Shown here one piece after another: positions 13,553 through 18,800 of a DNA stretch of 35,545 nt. Below the pieces are notes generated by a model that saw only the letters and a list, made by a program, of their open reading frames with translations, made no database searches and was not told the DNA's origin. Both the position numbers and the translations under genes were made by a program. Positions within the stretch are counted from its first letter, which is position 1, and every line of letters starts with the position of its first letter. The DNA comes from a virus (lineage: Duplodnaviria > Heunggongvirae > Uroviricota > Caudoviricetes): the IMG/VR virus record IMGVR_UViG_2698536672_000015, positions 1-35,545 of that record; one strand, given 5' to 3'.

Positions 13553-14548
13553 GTGACCGTGAGAGCACTACTGACCCCTGAAATTGCCCCGCGTATGGGG
13601 ATCGTATTGTTCAGACCAGGTTCAGAGCTGATGCCCCTGTTTATGCAGGGGCGTGTCCTGCTGGAGTCTGAGCCGGAACGTTATTCATCTTTCGCCAGTG
13701 GTGCCGTTCCGGCAGCATCACAACCGCTGGCGGATGATCCTGCCGTTCGGGCCGTGTTCCGCAATGAGGCAGTGATCCGTCGTGCTGGTGGAGTGGAATG
13801 TCTTGAAAGCTGGTTACTTCGTGAAAAAGGCTGCCAGTGGCCTCATTCCGACTGGCACAGCGAGAACATGACCACAATGCGACACGCGCCGGGCGCAATC
13901 CGTCTGTGCTGGCACTGCGATAACCAGCTGCGCGATCAGTTCACGGAACGGCTGGAATCAATGGCAACGGATAACTGTGCCCGCTGGGTGTTGTCTGTTG
14001 TGCGTCGGGATCTCGGTTTTGATGACAGTCACGTTGTGACAATGCCGGAACTGTGCTGGTGGCTGATTCGTAATGATCTGGCGGATGCCTTACCGGAAAG
14101 TGCAGCCCGTAAGGCACTGAGATTACCGAAGCCTGTTGTGCCGTCTGTTACCCGGGAAAGTGACCTTGTGCCTTCGGTTCCTGCCACCAGCATCATCCAG
14201 GATAAGGCGAAAAAGGTGCTGGCGCTGAAAGTGGATCCGGAGTCGCCGGAGTCTTTTATGTTACGCCCAAAACGTCGCCGCTGGGTTAATGAAAAGTACA
14301 CGCGCTGGGTTAAGACACAGCCGTGTGCATGTTGTGGAAAGCCCGCTGATGATCCCCACCACCTGATAGGTCACGGTCAGGGTGGAATGGGAACAAAAGC
14401 GCATGACCTTTTTGTGTTGCCTTTGTGCAGAAAGCATCACGACGAGCTGCATGCGGATACCGTGGCATTTGAAGAGAAGTATGGCTCCCAGCTGGAGCTG
14501 ATATTTCGTTTTATCGATCGTGCGCTGGCAATTGGCGTGCTGGCCTGA
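13553..14548 (+). CDS. DUF968-like phage protein with C-terminal Cys/His zinc-finger-like motif, 331 aa
   Basis: C-terminal CACCGKPADDPHHL...CRKHHDELH; start codon uncertain (GTG at 13553 or 13559). Confidence 0.45.
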   Translation: MTVRALLTPEIAPRMGIVLFRPGSELMPLFMQGRVLLESEPERYSSFASGAVPAASQPLADDPAVRAVFRNEAVIRRAGGVECLESWLLREKGCQWPHSDWHSENMTTMRHAPGAIRLCWHCDNQLRDQFTERLESMATDNCARWVLSVVRRDLGFDDSHVVTMPELCWWLIRNDLADALPESAARKALRLPKPVVPSVTRESDLVPSVPATSIIQDKAKKVLALKVDPESPESFMLRPKRRRWVNEKYTRWVKTQPCACCGKPADDPHHLIGHGQGGMGTKAHDLFVLPLCRKHHDELHADTVAFEEKYGSQLELIFRFIDRALAIGVLA

Positions 14549-14565
14549 TTTTGTGGAGAAAGTTG

Positions 14566-14928
14566 ATGCGTGATATGTATGAAGTATTGGACCGCTGGGG
14601 AGCATGGGCTGCAGCAGAAAATAGTGGTGTGGACTGGCAGCCGATAGCGGCTGGTTTCAAGGGACTTTTACCACACGGTAAAAAGTCACGTCTCCAGTGT
14701 GCTGATGATGAAGGCATCATGATAGACGGTTGTGTGGCTCGGTTGCGAAAGTATAAACCAGAGGAATATGAGCTAATCATAGCTCACTTTGTTATTGGTA
14801 TCTCATTACGCACTATTGCCAAGAAGAGAAGATGTTCAGATGGCACAATTAGGAAGGAATTGCAGACTGCCATGGGGTTTATCAGCGGTGTAATAATAAC
14901 TATAAACCCCATTATGGTAGTTAATTAA
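14566..14928 (+). CDS. Q: Late-gene antiterminator Q (phage 82 / QuuD type), 120 aa
   Basis: MRDMYEVLDRWGAWAA...GFKGL...SRLQCADDEG...CSDGTIRKELQTA matches my memory of QuuD-type Q proteins; start at the ATG at 14566 (RBS GTGGAGAAAG), not the TTG at 14551. Confidence 0.8.
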   Translation: MRDMYEVLDRWGAWAAAENSGVDWQPIAAGFKGLLPHGKKSRLQCADDEGIMIDGCVARLRKYKPEEYELIIAHFVIGISLRTIAKKRRCSDGTIRKELQTAMGFISGVIITINPIMVVN

Positions 14929-15496
14929 TGTGAATCCTATCACCAAGATAGTATAGTCCAAAAAATGTTGAAACAAGCATTTGCCATGTAAGGAATAAAA
15001 AGATAATGATATAGCACCAGTTTGCTATATCATTATTCAGTATGTTTATTAGTGGTGTGATAAAAGCGTTGAAAATCACTATGCATATGCTGAGGGCAGT
15101 TAAAAATGAAAATAACATGCACAGAAATAATCTTCTGGTAAGTTTCTCTTGAGTGTCAACAATTCTACCATTTTCTTTTGTTCGTGTAATTTTAATAAAA
15201 GGAGTGCCATTAGTTCCTATCAGAGGGTAGTCAATTTGTTCTCTGTTGAAAGTGGCTATTGCTGCAAGAGCTGCTATATAAAAACCTGGCAGATTTGATA
15301 CAAATCCAGATATAGACTTAATAAAGCCGCCATCTTTTAGTAGGTCTGATGTAGGTATTTTAAATAAATAAAAGTAAAAAAAAGAAATCACAGCAAGCCC
15401 GGCAGGTGCATAAAAATCGTATGCGCACTTACCACTAATTCCCTTAATGAAAAGGTAACCAAACGGTCTAAATAAATGTGAAAATATACTAATCAT
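14921..15496 (-). CDS. Hypothetical membrane protein, 191 aa, about four TM helices; gene 2 of the AT-rich two-gene cassette
   Basis: Hydrophobic segments AGLAVISFFYFYLF, FYIAALAAIATF, LFLCMLFSFLTALSICIVIF and WCYIIIFLFLTWQMLVSTFFGLYYL; ATG 7 nt after the upstream stop with a GAGG RBS; its stop overlaps the Q stop in TTAATTAA. Confidence 0.65.
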   Translation of the reverse strand: MISIFSHLFRPFGYLFIKGISGKCAYDFYAPAGLAVISFFYFYLFKIPTSDLLKDGGFIKSISGFVSNLPGFYIAALAAIATFNREQIDYPLIGTNGTPFIKITRTKENGRIVDTQEKLTRRLFLCMLFSFLTALSICIVIFNAFITPLINILNNDIANWCYIIIFLFLTWQMLVSTFFGLYYLGDRIHIN

Positions 15497-15503
15497 ATTA
15501 GCC

Positions 15504-16532
15504 TCACATGACCTCGATAATCTTATTCACAAACTCCATGTTAATACTATCATAAGAATCCTTTAAGCGCGAAGAAAAACCATTTATTACACTCTTTTTG
15601 ATAAATGTTTTTTCCAGCCCATCCAGCCTTACATTTGAAGTTTGAAGGTCAACTTGTCTTGTGAATCCTGTCTCTGGCTCTTTGAATTTTATTTTTATTA
15701 AGTCATAACCTCCATTTTTATCTTCTTTAAAGAAGTTTGAGACAGATTTTATCCATCCAAGGACATTGTTGGGGCCATGGTTTGGTACTAAGCGTAAAGT
15801 ACTTTCTTTAGGAATAATAGCCGCGTTAACATCTGGCGCATTAATAGTTCTGTATTCATTCTTTACCAAAACGACATCAGAAAGTCCTTCTTTATTTATT
15901 TTATTGAACAAATCTTCATCTAACTTTCCAGATATATCAAAGACTGGCTTGTATAATACTTTTATTTTTTTCTTTGTTAAACTTGACACTTCATTTGTTA
16001 AAGTGTTACATGAAAAGATATCTTCATTATCTTTGGCTACGTTAAAGAGAACTTTATTCAGGAAACCATTTATTTTTGCTGTGGAAACTCCTGGTATTGG
16101 CATAAAACTCATGTCATACGTTCGCATATTTCCGTCTAGAGAAATAATCATATGAGAAGAAACTTCGTAACCTTCACCTTCCTCATGTTTTGGTGATATT
16201 TCGGTGCGAACATCTGTATTAATGTTTTTTAATACAGTAGTGCTTCCATTTTTATCTACAGCATTAATTAAAAGACCAAGATGGCTGGGTTTTTTATCGG
16301 CTCTGTTTGATAAGAATATTACATCTTGTAAAGTTAAAACTAAGTCTCCTTTTTCATAACTGTGCATCATTGCTTTACAACGTACTATTTTAGAAGCAAG
16401 TTCACGCATTGTTGGTACCGGGCAAACACAGTTCGATCTGATGCTATCATCAATTTTCTGTGTACGGTATTGTGTATCGATCGTAATAGTATGATGAGTT
16501 ATTACTCTACTGAATGCGTCCAGTGTAGCCAT
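15504..16532 (-). CDS. Hypothetical soluble protein, 342 aa, K/N/D-rich; gene 1 of the AT-rich two-gene cassette
   Basis: Long uninterrupted ORF in an AT-rich block (18 G+C in 15001-15060, 30%); no Walker, kinase or other motif I can recognise. Confidence 0.65.
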   Translation of the reverse strand: MATLDAFSRVITHHTITIDTQYRTQKIDDSIRSNCVCPVPTMRELASKIVRCKAMMHSYEKGDLVLTLQDVIFLSNRADKKPSHLGLLINAVDKNGSTTVLKNINTDVRTEISPKHEEGEGYEVSSHMIISLDGNMRTYDMSFMPIPGVSTAKINGFLNKVLFNVAKDNEDIFSCNTLTNEVSSLTKKKIKVLYKPVFDISGKLDEDLFNKINKEGLSDVVLVKNEYRTINAPDVNAAIIPKESTLRLVPNHGPNNVLGWIKSVSNFFKEDKNGGYDLIKIKFKEPETGFTRQVDLQTSNVRLDGLEKTFIKKSVINGFSSRLKDSYDSINMEFVNKIIEVM

Positions 16533-16645
16533 TTCAAAATATCCGCTTCTTTGCTGTTTTTATATGGAGAAAGTTTACATAACCACTAACGCGTACGCAA
16601 AAACTATTGTATCGTGTTAAGAGTGGTTACTTCGCCACACAGCTT
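16533..16645 (+). promoter_or_regulatory. Candidate Q-dependent late promoter region (pR'/qut-like); exact -35/-10 not resolved
   Basis: Lies between the cassette and a plus-strand terminator about 170 nt upstream of the holin, matching the lambdoid pR'-tR' layout; TTTACA at 16574-16579 is a possible -35. Confidence 0.3.
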
Positions 16646-16676
16646 AAACCCGCCGTCGAGCGGGTTTTGTCGTTTC
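16646..16676 (+). terminator. Rho-independent terminator (tR'-like) upstream of the lysis genes
   Basis: AAACCCGC-cgtcga-GCGGGTTT followed by TGTCGTTT. Confidence 0.6.
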
Positions 16677-16819
16677 TGGGGCTGGGGATTCGTTGGTCCT
16701 GGCCTATTCCGCAGTTATCCATTGGCTCGGCTTCTTTGACGTTTCCGCTTCTGATTTGCGGTACATGATGTTCCCTCAATTTGCACCTGCTGTATCAGCG
16801 AGGTGAGAGATAACTACAA

Positions 16820-17146
16820 ATGCCTCATAACCCAAATACCTGGCTGGAGTTGTTTCAGAGCTGGTGGCGTGGAGACACACCGCTGGGCGCAGTGATTATG
16901 TCGATCGTTATGGCTGGCTTGCGCATTGCCTATTTTGGCGGTGGTGGTGGCTGGAAGCGAAAAACGCTCGAGATTTTGCTCTGTGGTGCTCTGACGCTGA
17001 CTTTTGCATCCGCTCTTGAGTATGTCGGATGGCCTAAATCTCTTTCTGTTGCCATTGGTGGCGGCGTTGGGCTGATCGGTGTCGATGCTATTCGTGGGGC
17101 TGCAATGCGAGTAATCGGTAACAAATTTGGTAGCTCGAAGGAGTAA
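16820..17146 (+). CDS. Holin, 108 aa
   Basis: First gene of the lysis cassette; hydrophobic TM segments; charged C-terminus; GGTGAGAGA RBS. Confidence 0.7.
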   Translation: MPHNPNTWLELFQSWWRGDTPLGAVIMSIVMAGLRIAYFGGGGGWKRKTLEILLCGALTLTFASALEYVGWPKSLSVAIGGGVGLIGVDAIRGAAMRVIGNKFGSSKE

Positions 17147-17149
17147 TTT

Positions 17150-17626
17150 ATGCAGGTACTAAATCCTCAGCGTAAAGCTTTCCTTGATATGGTGGCCTGG
17201 TCAGAAGGAACGGATAACGGGCGACAACCGACACGTAACCACGGTTATGACGTTATTGTCGGTGGCGAACTCTTCACTGATTACTCCGATCACCCTCGAA
17301 AACTTGTCACGCTAAACCCGAAACTCAAATCAACAGCCGCAGGCCGTTATCAACTTCTTTCACGCTGGTGGGATGCTTACCGCAAGCAGTTAGGGCTGAC
17401 AGACTTCTCTCCTAAAAGCCAGGATGCTGTTGCATTGCAGCAGATTAAGGAGCGTGGCGCTTTACTAATGATTGATCGCGGTGACATCCGTCAGGCAATC
17501 GACCGTTGCAGCAATATCTGGGCCTCATTGCCTGGCGCTGGTTATGGTCAGTTCGAGCATAAGACTGACAGCCTGATTGCAAAATTCAAAGAAGCGGGCG
17601 GAACGGTCAGAGAGATTGAGGTATGA
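17150..17626 (+). CDS. R: Endolysin, lambda R-type lytic transglycosylase, 158 aa
   Basis: Translation is near-identical to my recollection of lambda R ([22 protein letters not shown]...). Confidence 0.93.
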
Positions 17627-18066
17627 GCAGAGTCACCGCGATTATCTCCGTTCTGGTTATCTGCATCATCGTCTGCCTGTCATGGGCGGTTAATCATTAC
17701 CGTGATAACGCCATCACCTACAAAAAGCAGCGCGATAAGGCCGCATCCATTATCGCTGACATGCAGAAACGTCAAAGTAATGTAGCTGAACTCGATGCCA
17801 GATATACAAAGGAGCTTGCTGATGCTAACGCGACTATCGAAAGTCTTCGTGCTGATGTTTCTGCTGGTCGTAAGTGGCTGCACGTCAAAGCAGTCTGTCC
17901 GGACATGCATAAAACCACCGCCGCCTCCGGCGTGGATGATGCTTCCAGCCCCAGACTTACTGACACCGCTCAACGGGATTATTTCGTTCTCAGAGAGCGC
18001 ATCGAAACCATAACTAACCAATTGAATGGCCTGCAAGAGTATGTGAGATCACAGTGTTCATATTAG
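17623..18066 (+). CDS. Rz: Spanin inner-membrane subunit Rz, 147 aa
   Basis: N-terminus [34 protein letters not shown] closely matches lambda Rz; overlaps the R stop. Confidence 0.9.
17822..18013 (+). CDS. Rz1: Spanin outer-membrane lipoprotein subunit Rz1, embedded in Rz in the +1 frame, 63 aa
   Basis: Lipobox LVVSGC then TSKQSV and a PPPPP run, as in lambda Rz1; AAGGAG RBS before the ATG at 17822. Confidence 0.8.
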
Positions 18067-18104
18067 AAAAGTCTTATCATGAGATTTTTGTATATGGATG
18101 CATT

Positions 18105-18479
18105 ATGTCTCAATACGCGCGCGCCGCTTTAATCGCTTATCATTTGGTTGCTGATAGCTCAATGCCTCCTCGTGATGCATGGGATGCAGCTGTCGCAGAG
18201 GTTACAGAAAGCGAATCGTCAAGAAAGAAGATATGCCCAAGGGCAACATTTCTCGCCCTGGCGGATAGCGGTTACCTCAAGAATGTAAAACCACTGCATG
18301 GGGAGAAAAAGGGCGGTAAGTTGTACCAAAGGGCAATTGAAGTTGCGAATCTGATTCTTGATTTACCCGGAATCAGTAAAGCTGAATTGGTTGATAAAAC
18401 TGGTTACAAAGACAGGCAAGGGTCTTATGACCTGATTCTCGCTCTGTATCATCATGAGCAACTCCAGCGACCGGAATAA
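18105..18479 (+). CDS. Hypothetical protein, 124 aa
   Basis: ORF after the lysis cassette; start at the ATG at 18105 chosen over the GTG at 18054; no family recognised. Confidence 0.45.
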   Translation: MSQYARAALIAYHLVADSSMPPRDAWDAAVAEVTESESSRKKICPRATFLALADSGYLKNVKPLHGEKKGGKLYQRAIEVANLILDLPGISKAELVDKTGYKDRQGSYDLILALYHHEQLQRPE

Positions 18480-18596
18480 TTATCCCGGCATCAGTGTCAA
18501 AAATAGGCAGTGATACGCTATTTTCCTGAAAATACTTTACTAACATTTTATGAGAATTATCCTAGTAAAGTGTTTATTTAAAAGGAGTTTGGGTTT

Positions 18597-18800
18597 ATGA
18601 AAATTCTCTGGGTCATCAGTCTTTTGTGTAGTGCTATTGGATTTATTGAAGGAATCCTCGGGGTTTTCGGTGCTCAGAGTGCTCCACAACAGGCTGCAGG
18701 TGCAGCAATGGGAGTAGCATGGGCAGTTATTCCATATTGTATTTGTCGTGCTATCCAACAATTGCGCCCTCGAGAAGTCATTATTAAAAAGGAAGAATGA
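18597..18800 (+). CDS. Small hydrophobic protein, 67 aa, about two TM segments
   Basis: AAGGAG RBS; hydrophobic stretches; followed by a terminator. Confidence 0.5.
   Translation: MKILWVISLLCSAIGFIEGILGVFGAQSAPQQAAGAAMGVAWAVIPYCICRAIQQLRPREVIIKKEE

Follow-up and report, generated by a model that had tools for sequence, protein, structure and literature searches.

Results

Two antisense genes lie between Q and the holin gene

The DNA analysed here, referred to as the window, is the 35,545-nt IMG/VR virus record IMGVR_UViG_2698536672_000015 (Caudoviricetes), and our subject is a cassette of two minus-strand genes located between the Q antiterminator gene and the holin gene. Gene A (15504..16532) is an open reading frame (ORF) for a soluble protein of 342 aa (38.5 kDa, isoelectric point 8.5), and gene B (14921..15496) is an ORF for a predicted four-helix inner-membrane protein of 191 aa; they match the families PDC-M53A and PDC-M53B, respectively. 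In the ORF list, the two genes are co-directional and separated by a gap of 7 bp (15497-15503). On the minus strand, the junction reads ...ATCGAGGTCATGTGAGGCTAATATG with a GAGG motif positioned 5 nt before the ATG of gene B. Because this putative ribosome binding site (15502..15505, minus strand) overlaps the TGA stop codon of gene A (junction, GTCATGTGAGGCTAATATG), the two genes are probably translationally coupled. Inspection of the sequence also revealed another GAGG deeper within gene A.

The cassette has a G+C content of 33.5% overall and of 30.0% in 15001-15060 versus 50-55% in the flanking genes (DUF968 gene, 0.55; holin gene, 0.52; lysozyme gene, 0.50), and the G+C content at third codon positions is 0.27 in both cassette genes versus 0.42-0.50 in their neighbours. 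The low-G+C block extends from ~14750 to ~16575, so that it begins within the 3' end of Q. The Q gene (14551..14928, plus strand) is an ORF of 125 aa annotated in RefSeq as 'antiterminator Q family protein', and its stop codon is convergent with that of gene B: the sequence of 14921-14928 is TTAATTAA and contains both the TAA of Q (14926-14928) and the TAA of gene B (14923-14921 on the minus strand). The right edge of the slot is formed by a lambda-family holin gene (16820..17146, plus strand; RefSeq 'phage holin, lambda family'), which is 97% identical to the S gene of Shigella phage SfII. The RefSeq annotation of the neighbours was taken from near-identical Escherichia coli prophages, in which both cassette genes are listed as hypothetical. 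These data agree with an earlier note on this DNA, made from the sequence alone, which had reported the two ORFs with the ribosome binding site in the end of the first, the AT-rich block, the convergent stops in a palindrome and the identity of both neighbours.

The cassette matches the candidate defence system PDC-M53

In PADLOC-DB v2, protein A matches the PDC-M53A model PDLC04696 (E=1.3e-31; residues 8-340 on positions 5-316 of 320) as well as three additional PDC-M53A models, and protein B matches the PDC-M53B model PDLC04699 (E=1.7e-54; residues 4-190 on positions 2-186 of 188). The two genes are also arranged as in PDC-M53, i.e. they are adjacent, co-directional and in the expected order. 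On the basis of these matches, the cassette belongs to the catalogued PADLOC candidate PDC-M53. The PDC entries are unpublished and untested predictions that the PADLOC authors list as candidates for defence systems (PMC11811056), and our literature search found no mention of PDC-M53. Neither A nor B had a match in Pfam or NCBIfam scans, and in PHROGs each protein falls into a family of unknown function (for B, phrog_8257 with E=1e-99). Thus, the homology found is to a defence family, and no homology to a non-defence family, which the earlier note had named as an argument against its proposal, was found. By contrast, the suggestion that the module is undescribed has to be given up because both proteins are full-length matches to PDC-M53 (PADLOC-DB v2, 2023) and because RexABpp, which is considered below, was validated in 2026 (PMC12894663).

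Protein A is without a hydrophobic segment in a hydropathy scan. When modelled with AlphaFold on the basis of 27 homologs (predicted local distance difference test score, pLDDT, 78; predicted template modelling score, pTM, 0.68), A has RdgC and lambda RexA as its closest structural neighbours in the PDB; Atp11, CENP-N and CHL4 are further neighbours, and IML3 is found lower down. In this model, A is predicted to have the two-domain RexA/RdgC fold. When predicted viral structures were searched with A using Foldseek, four uncharacterised phage proteins of 277-322 aa were recovered (E ~4e-9).

The analogy to lambda RexA/RexB, which had been drawn from gene layout only, is accordingly borne out at the level of modelled structure for A, and the absence of sequence similarity to Rex and Kiwa stated alongside it was also confirmed. 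Specifically, window A had no match at E<=1 to the RexA models of Pfam (PF15969) and PADLOC, and 25 family members had none at E<=10, while lambda RexA as a control matched its own models at 1e-97 and 9e-110. Similarly, neither window B nor 51 family members matched the RexB models (Pfam PF15968 and PADLOC RexB), while lambda RexB matched its own model at 8.5e-92. In hhalign comparisons, for which profiles of 27, 16 and 25 sequences were used for A and a profile of 51 sequences for B, the values obtained against lambda RexA (E=0.088 with one of the A profiles) and lambda RexB (E=0.079 with the B profile) were non-significant. A published HHpred link to RexA was not reproduced in our comparison, which was made without a RexA alignment.

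For protein B, an AlphaFold model from 51 homologs (pLDDT 87.6, pTM 0.83) contains four long helices (residues 23-44, 58-82, 121-153 and 156-187) and a beta-hairpin (100-118) within the K/R-rich loop between the second and third transmembrane (TM) helices, TM2 and TM3. A hydropathy scan identified two strongly hydrophobic segments, both of which are C-terminal. Together with the lack of a hydrophobic segment in A, the modelled helices of B agree with the pairing of a four-helix membrane protein and a soluble partner that the earlier note had read from the translations. The N-terminus of B contains three K/R residues and the 96-125 loop seven; according to the positive-inside rule, the two termini and the central loop are therefore predicted to be cytoplasmic. 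Three motifs are invariant in the B family: LPGF.IAALAA..F (in TM2), RR..L..F..L (start of TM3) and G.L.Y.G (end of TM4). Among the viral structures in BFVD, the best template modelling scores for B (0.48/0.52, non-significant) were obtained with a protein of 'Siphoviridae sp. ctylc9', which also supplies one of the four significant A-like structural matches (E ~6e-9), and a 165-aa protein of phage Sbash was the fifth-ranked match, also non-significant. These resemblances of the B model are suggestive only.

Homology to the RexABpp defence system of Pseudomonas putida

RexABpp (PP_5643/PP_5644) is encoded by prophage P1 of Pseudomonas putida and was described by Rosendahl et al. (Sci Rep 2026; PMC12894663), who make no mention of PADLOC. 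Both genes are needed for defence against three phage species, and loss of either abolishes defence (PMC12894663). Overexpression of RexApp causes growth arrest and membrane permeabilisation that depend on RexBpp, a protein with four TM helices and without a detectable homolog of known function; the pair is located near/downstream of a cI-like repressor (PMC12894663).

For comparison, we derived the termini of the two proteins from the published primer table rather than from the full PP_5643/PP_5644 sequences. RexApp begins and ends as MHRTATFV...VYNKQSRLMV* and RexBpp as MLIGQLANP...LYYLGYKLQE*, and the genes are spaced by 2 nt. A pair in Pseudomonas sp. 286 (locus L022) has the same A start (MHRTATFV, 8/8), the same B end (LYYLGYKLQE, 10/10) and the same spacing of 2 nt, and the RexABpp primers align at the expected gene ends. 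In addition, the His-tagged L022 A would have a mass of 37.6 kDa versus the 37.5 kDa reported for RexApp, and L022 B carries W25, F35, L55, G153 and Y181, i.e. five of the seven residues at which RexBpp suppressor mutations were found. Its sister pair, L014, matches PDC-M53A with E=8e-153 and PDC-M53B with E=6e-73.

Aligned over its full length, window B shares 40% identity with L022 B (E=6e-30), and its invariant residue Y183 is the equivalent of RexBpp Y181. Window A and L022 A are 20% identical in a pairwise comparison (E=0.016), and the A family profile matches L022 A with 99% probability (E=3.8e-18, 281 columns). Because L022 matches the RexABpp termini and the window proteins are homologous to L022, we conclude from sequence comparison that RexABpp is a PDC-M53 system and that the window cassette is its E. 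coli/Shigella-prophage branch. A search with the B subfamily recovered 17 loci in other Pseudomonas and in Burkholderiales, and P. putida itself was not among them.

A large family with a variable protein A and a conserved protein B

Using indexed searches, we identified 34-38 clusters of A, all in Enterobacterales and with identities down to 45%, and 609 clusters of B. Profile-based extension of the A family in the word-indexed search yielded no new members. An exhaustive profile search for B returned 745 clusters at 50% identity (640 of these at E<=1e-10), nearly all of 185-210 aa. The B family is spread through the Gamma- and Betaproteobacteria, and its members include a Salmonella cluster on 95 contigs, several from Vibrio and also Nitrosomonas.

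Every B gene examined is directly preceded by a gene for a protein of 317-361 aa that matches PDC-M53A, and the order with A first is kept in all loci examined. The PDC-M53A match persists where pairwise similarity to window A is gone; the Shewanella partner is 34% identical to window A, and the Vibrio partner is similar at the motif level only. Pairs are also present in Salmonella phage F1055 and Moraxella phage Mcat23, and in 17 loci of Pseudomonas, Burkholderiales, Marinobacter and Acinetobacter the gap between A and B is -4 to +26 nt. The earlier note had asked whether the pair recurs as a conserved unit, including at the junction of Q and the holin gene; it was kept in every locus examined.

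In other words, A diverges beyond pairwise detection and B is strongly conserved. Such a pattern would be expected for a pair consisting of a sensor and an effector, and it fits with the layout of a cytoplasmic protein and a multi-pass membrane protein from which a sensor/effector pair had been proposed. In the representative library, a single polypeptide of 513 aa (P0195) contains PDC-M53A in residues 1-319 and PDC-M53B in residues 327-511; it could be a natural A-B fusion or a sequencing artefact.

Genomic slot and carriers

Among 5,426 complete E. coli genomes, the cassette is present with 99.4-99.9% identity in 15, which originate from mouse, goat, calf, chicken and human sources, and a variant with ~67% identity is present in nine more, giving a total of 24. 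Shigella phage SfII carries this diverged variant (SfII_50/49; 58% and 64% identity). Without exception, the pair is found in antisense orientation between Q and the holin gene(s) in the prophages of E. coli, Shigella, Klebsiella oxytoca, Citrobacter koseri, Erwinia billingiae and Serratia, although the holin families differ among these prophages. A gene of the PF06530 family (Phage_antitermQ) adjoins the pair in the Klebsiella, Erwinia and Serratia prophages. In Salmonella phage F1055, the pair is in sense orientation just before the holin genes.

The Vibrio loci are arranged differently. In Vibrio cyclitrophicus (L005/L010), the pair is located beside the integrase of PM2-like (Vinavirales) elements of 13-15 kb, in Vibrio campbellii (L037) at the end of a Zot-encoding filamentous prophage, and in Vibrio sp. 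V12 (L038) it is alone in the chromosome between metabolic genes. The carriers therefore comprise tailed, PM2-like and filamentous prophages, which is unusually wide for one defence pair. The proposal of a horizontally mobile moron in the interval between Q and the lysis genes is supported.

The low-G+C stretch at 14750-14928 corresponds to the last ~60 codons of Q, and among E. coli genomes this Q allele was found only alongside the cassette. The insert may have brought this end of Q with it.

From the start of gene A to the holin gene, the DNA is non-coding (16533..16819) and contains a conserved element of ~95 nt (about 16573-16669, plus strand) that is 90-95% identical to unannotated DNA of Stx2 and lambda-like phages, in which the matches lie upstream of the lysis or stx regions. 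The element ends with a terminator-like, G+C-rich hairpin (16646-16667, plus strand; AAACCCGCCGTCGAGCGGGTTT) followed by a T-run. It gave no fold-energy signal (z = -0.3), and an Rfam scan of 14000-18500 returned no match. We infer that the element is probably a late-promoter/tR' module. If so, the late transcript would begin downstream of the cassette and the early one would be antisense to it, and the cassette would therefore require its own promoter; this minus-strand promoter would have to be within 16533..16819.

A few observations concern other loci with the pair and other parts of the window. In Vibrio coralliilyticus (L039 1197-3457), genes for proteins of 330 aa and 197 aa without a Pfam match are located ~4 kb upstream of the pair and may be a second, diverged copy of it. 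The Erwinia billingiae prophage encodes an anti-defence protein of the Acb2/Tad1-hairpin type next to the lysis genes (L034 4644-4925), and the Serratia prophage a putAbiC protein next to Q (L035 9128-9946). Within the coding region of gene B in the window, 15003..15036 forms a perfect inverted repeat with a 14-bp stem and a 6-nt loop, versus a longest perfect stem of 12 (typically 6-7) across 300 shuffles of the gene. A counterpart at the same place, with an 11-bp stem, is present only in the closest Klebsiella homolog. The repeat was flagged as terminator-like on both strands by a scan, and arises because the codons for N-D-I and Y-I-I are mutually reverse-complementary. Finally, a second low-G+C patch (18300-18750; 39-40% G+C) lies downstream of the Rz-like gene. 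It has small ORFs on both strands, e.g. 18054-18479 and 18597-18800, and its position holds bor, ybcV and ybcW in related prophages.

Other cargo at the same position

A second AT-rich antisense pair (34-38% G+C) occupies the same slot between Q and the late-region element in the Stx2a-converting phage Stx2a_1447 of E. coli O157:H7 (genes 24/23; AP012536.1 13770-15333, L036 200-1763) and in Shigella phage SfIV (SfIV_49/48; L011 923-2345). It encodes a soluble protein of 343-356 aa and a membrane protein of ~179 aa that has about four hydrophobic segments; in SfIV, the copy of the membrane gene is cut to 108 aa beside IS1. The Stx2a_1447 and SfIV versions are homologous (33% identity, E=6e-72), and the pair is present in 14 of the 5,426 E. 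coli genomes. Neither of the SfIV proteins was matched in PADLOC or Pfam, and the membrane protein has no significant relation to the B family. A relation of the soluble protein to the A family or RexA was considered and rejected: SfIV_49 alone gave E=4e-4 (34% probability), and this signal was gone with a two-sequence profile.

In Escherichia virus mEp460_4F5 (L013 516-1442), the slot contains a lone antisense ORF of 308 aa with 30% G+C and no PADLOC or Pfam match. In this virus, in E. coli 14EC007 (L012) and in Stx2a_1447, a DNA methyltransferase gene is located downstream of the conserved element, and there are, therefore, two separate cargo positions in the interval between Q and the holin gene. 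The unmatched cargo of SfIV and mEp460 neither supports nor weakens an association of the slot with defence.

As a tentative and rather doubtful idea, the junction of Q and the late-promoter element of lambdoid phages could serve specifically for the docking of interchangeable pairs, AT-rich and in antisense orientation, that consist of a soluble sensor and a small multi-pass membrane effector and come from more than one sequence family. The second pair may, then, be a second Rex-like family that has not previously been described. If it is Rex-like, Shiga-toxin phages would carry an undescribed defence family, and Rex-type immunity would be a much larger, structurally unified and sequence-diverse class than the 'five systems' of 2026.

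Discussion

The ORFs, their composition and family, the modelled fold of A, the predicted topology of B, the conservation of both pair and slot, and the homology to a RexABpp-type pair were established here from the DNA and its relatives. Together, they lead us to suggest that the cassette is probably a prophage-borne abortive-infection defence system of the RexAB type. From the literature we take the defence phenotype, the binding of DNA by RexApp, and the toxicity and membrane damage that depend on RexBpp; that the E. coli version would act in the same way, which phages it would target and that it would be expressed in lysogens are suggested by analogy. In this model, A would dimerise and bind DNA non-specifically, as do RexApp and lambda RexA, and would function as the infection sensor by detecting a state or product induced by the phage. 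The rapid divergence of A between hosts is what would be expected for a component that meets phage-specific triggers. Activated A would, in turn, activate B, probably via the cytoplasmic loop of B, and triggered B would oligomerise or open, thereby compromising the membrane. As a result, the infected cell would stop growing or die before the attacking phage finishes its cycle. With its own promoter and antisense to the early and late operons, the pair could be expressed from a repressed prophage.

Several observations weigh against this model. Window A is only ~20% identical to the validated RexApp type, and the phenotype of the E. coli/Shigella branch is assigned by analogy. The placement of RexABpp in PDC-M53 is drawn from primer-derived termini and the close relative L022, and the exact primer pattern had no match in species-representative genomes. 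A sequence link to RexA/RexB had to be rejected, as the Rex models, hhalign and profile searches of PDB sequences were all non-significant. In the Foldseek search of BFVD viral structures, no match to B was obtained at E<0.5 and lambda RexB was not listed, and a structural match of B to RexB was rejected on this search. The cassette is rare (24 of the 5,426 complete E. coli genomes), we found no consensus (sigma-70) promoter upstream of gene A, and, as an insert with 33% G+C, the cassette may be silenced by H-NS in E. coli.

Three other explanations for the cassette were considered. First, the pair could mainly serve the prophage's own biology rather than act against other phages. There is precedent for this in lambda, where RexA has a biasing effect on the lysis-lysogeny switch and RexB shields labile proteins from ClpXP; moreover, according to Adams et al., RexA acts on the bistable switch independently of RexB, and DNA binding is not strictly needed for exclusion. 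The locking of the Enterobacterales cassette to the slot beside Q and the conserved late-region element, and the extension of the low-G+C block into the 3' end of Q, would also fit such a role. However, outside Enterobacterales the pair is found in unrelated places, i.e. at a PM2-like integrase, at a filamentous prophage end, in the chromosome and near cI, which argues that its function is independent of Q. Deletion of either P. putida gene abolishes defence (PMC12894663), and an arms race accounts for the fast divergence of A better than housekeeping regulation does. We therefore regard a role confined to the prophage as unlikely.

Second, the genes could form a toxin-antitoxin-like addiction module or a superinfection-exclusion (Sie) module, in which B, as a toxin or injection blocker, would stabilise the prophage or block DNA entry without sensing infection and without an abortive outcome. 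In favour of this, the two genes show tight coupling, Sie-type exclusion typically involves inner-membrane proteins of prophages, and leaky co-expression of rexABpp is toxic in E. coli in a manner that depends on the protein ratio (PMC12894663). However, toxicity in P. putida needs an excess of A and is relieved by mutation of B (PMC12894663), which points to A as an activator and not an antitoxin. The predicted RexA/RdgC fold of A points to a nucleic-acid-facing sensor, and Sie proteins are usually encoded by single genes; we consider this explanation quite unlikely. Third, it is very unlikely that the cassette is silent hitch-hiking DNA, H-NS-repressed or otherwise unexpressed and without a current function in E. 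coli: its 33% G+C, the lack of a consensus sigma-70 promoter upstream of A and its presence in 24/5,426 genomes would be consistent with this, but neither ORF is disrupted, identity among the 15 genomes from varied hosts is 99.4-99.9%, the protein families are kept as intact pairs across many genera, and there is no frameshift or IS insertion as in SfIV_48, which ends beside IS1.

Our preferred interpretation as a RexAB-type defence system ties together the PDC-M53 candidate, RexABpp defence and the classical lambda Rex fold. The catalogue entry and defence by RexABpp were already known; added here are the link between the two, the modelled RexA fold, the family's size and its constant position in Enterobacterales. 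With 745 B clusters, the Rex-type family is large in comparison with the five RexAB-like systems counted in 2026 (PMC12894663). The asymmetry between a variable A and a conserved B, together with the putative A-B fusion, provides a handle on phage recognition, a question since Benzer's rII work. Moreover, the E. coli/Shigella version comes with a tractable host and a deep phage collection, and could, therefore, have advantages as a model over the Pseudomonas or mycobacterial systems. On a practical level, labels can now be given to the two 'hypothetical proteins' that such prophages encode between Q and the holin gene.

Comparison with known systems

The closest characterised system is RexABpp. 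It differs from the window cassette in location, with the P. putida pair downstream of a cI-like repressor and the window pair in antisense orientation between Q and the holin gene, as well as in its host and, presumably, in the phages that are sensed. The cassette also resembles the actinophage pairs Sbash gp30/gp31 and CarolAnn gp44/gp43 as well as Toast gp42, in which a soluble protein of ~340-370 aa with a partner with four TM helices is expressed from the prophage. For these Rex-like systems, loss of membrane potential has been proposed (PMC6426596), and their RexA homologs dimerise and bind DNA non-specifically, as described for the lambda, Sbash, CarolAnn, Toast and P. putida proteins, for which depolarisation of the membrane upon activation and an abortive outcome of infection have also been shown. 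By contrast, their hosts are Actinobacteria, and they have a DUF4747 or RexA-type sequence signal shared with lambda RexA that was not seen in window A.

Sucellos (SclA/SclB) from the Vibrio cholerae superintegron is described as RexAB-like in structure, and the Rex Pfam domains do not recognise it; it needs both of its genes, a membrane pore is predicted for SclB, and cells die early after infection (bioRxiv 10.1101/2024.07.02.601686). Its homologs are mostly in prophages, 'often in Salmonella' (bioRxiv 10.1101/2024.07.02.601686). The likeness of Sucellos to PDC-M53 is one of published description rather than of sequence comparison, and, unlike the superintegron locus, the three Vibrio loci examined here are not integron arrays. 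E. coli RdgC, which shares the predicted fold of A, is a recombination-associated, ring-shaped DNA-binding protein with a chromosomal housekeeping role and without a membrane partner, and has 5% identity to A and no sequence match. Kiwa is a two-gene defence operon consisting of KwaA, with four TM helices, and the soluble KwaB (DUF4868) of ~300 aa. In Kiwa the membrane gene is first, whereas in the window cassette the soluble gene is first, and the window proteins had no match to PADLOC Kiwa or Pfam DUF4868 at E<=1. The PDC-M53 catalogue entry, which all divergent partners tested also match, comes without a fold, mechanism or Rex link.

Lambda RexA/RexB and the cassette share the design of a prophage two-gene unit in which the cytoplasmic gene is first and the gene for an inner-membrane protein with four TM helices is second. 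In the models, A shares the RexA/RdgC fold with lambda RexA, and B, with four helices, both termini inside and a central cytoplasmic loop, resembles RexB. The same topology has been described for RexB and Sbash gp31, and the central loop of gp31 is required for defence (PMC6426596). However, the window proteins are longer than their lambda counterparts (A, 342 versus 279 aa; B, 191 versus 144 aa), and the central loop of window B is predicted to hold a beta-hairpin, unlike that of lambda RexB. The cassette is outside the immunity region and is not co-transcribed with cI, there is no detectable sequence similarity, and the sequence-family definitions of RexA and RexB failed. Because the Rex sequence definitions failed and the cassette is located outside the immunity region, we do not refer to it as 'RexAB' and, on present sequence relationships, file it as 'RexAB-type, PDC-M53/RexABpp family'.

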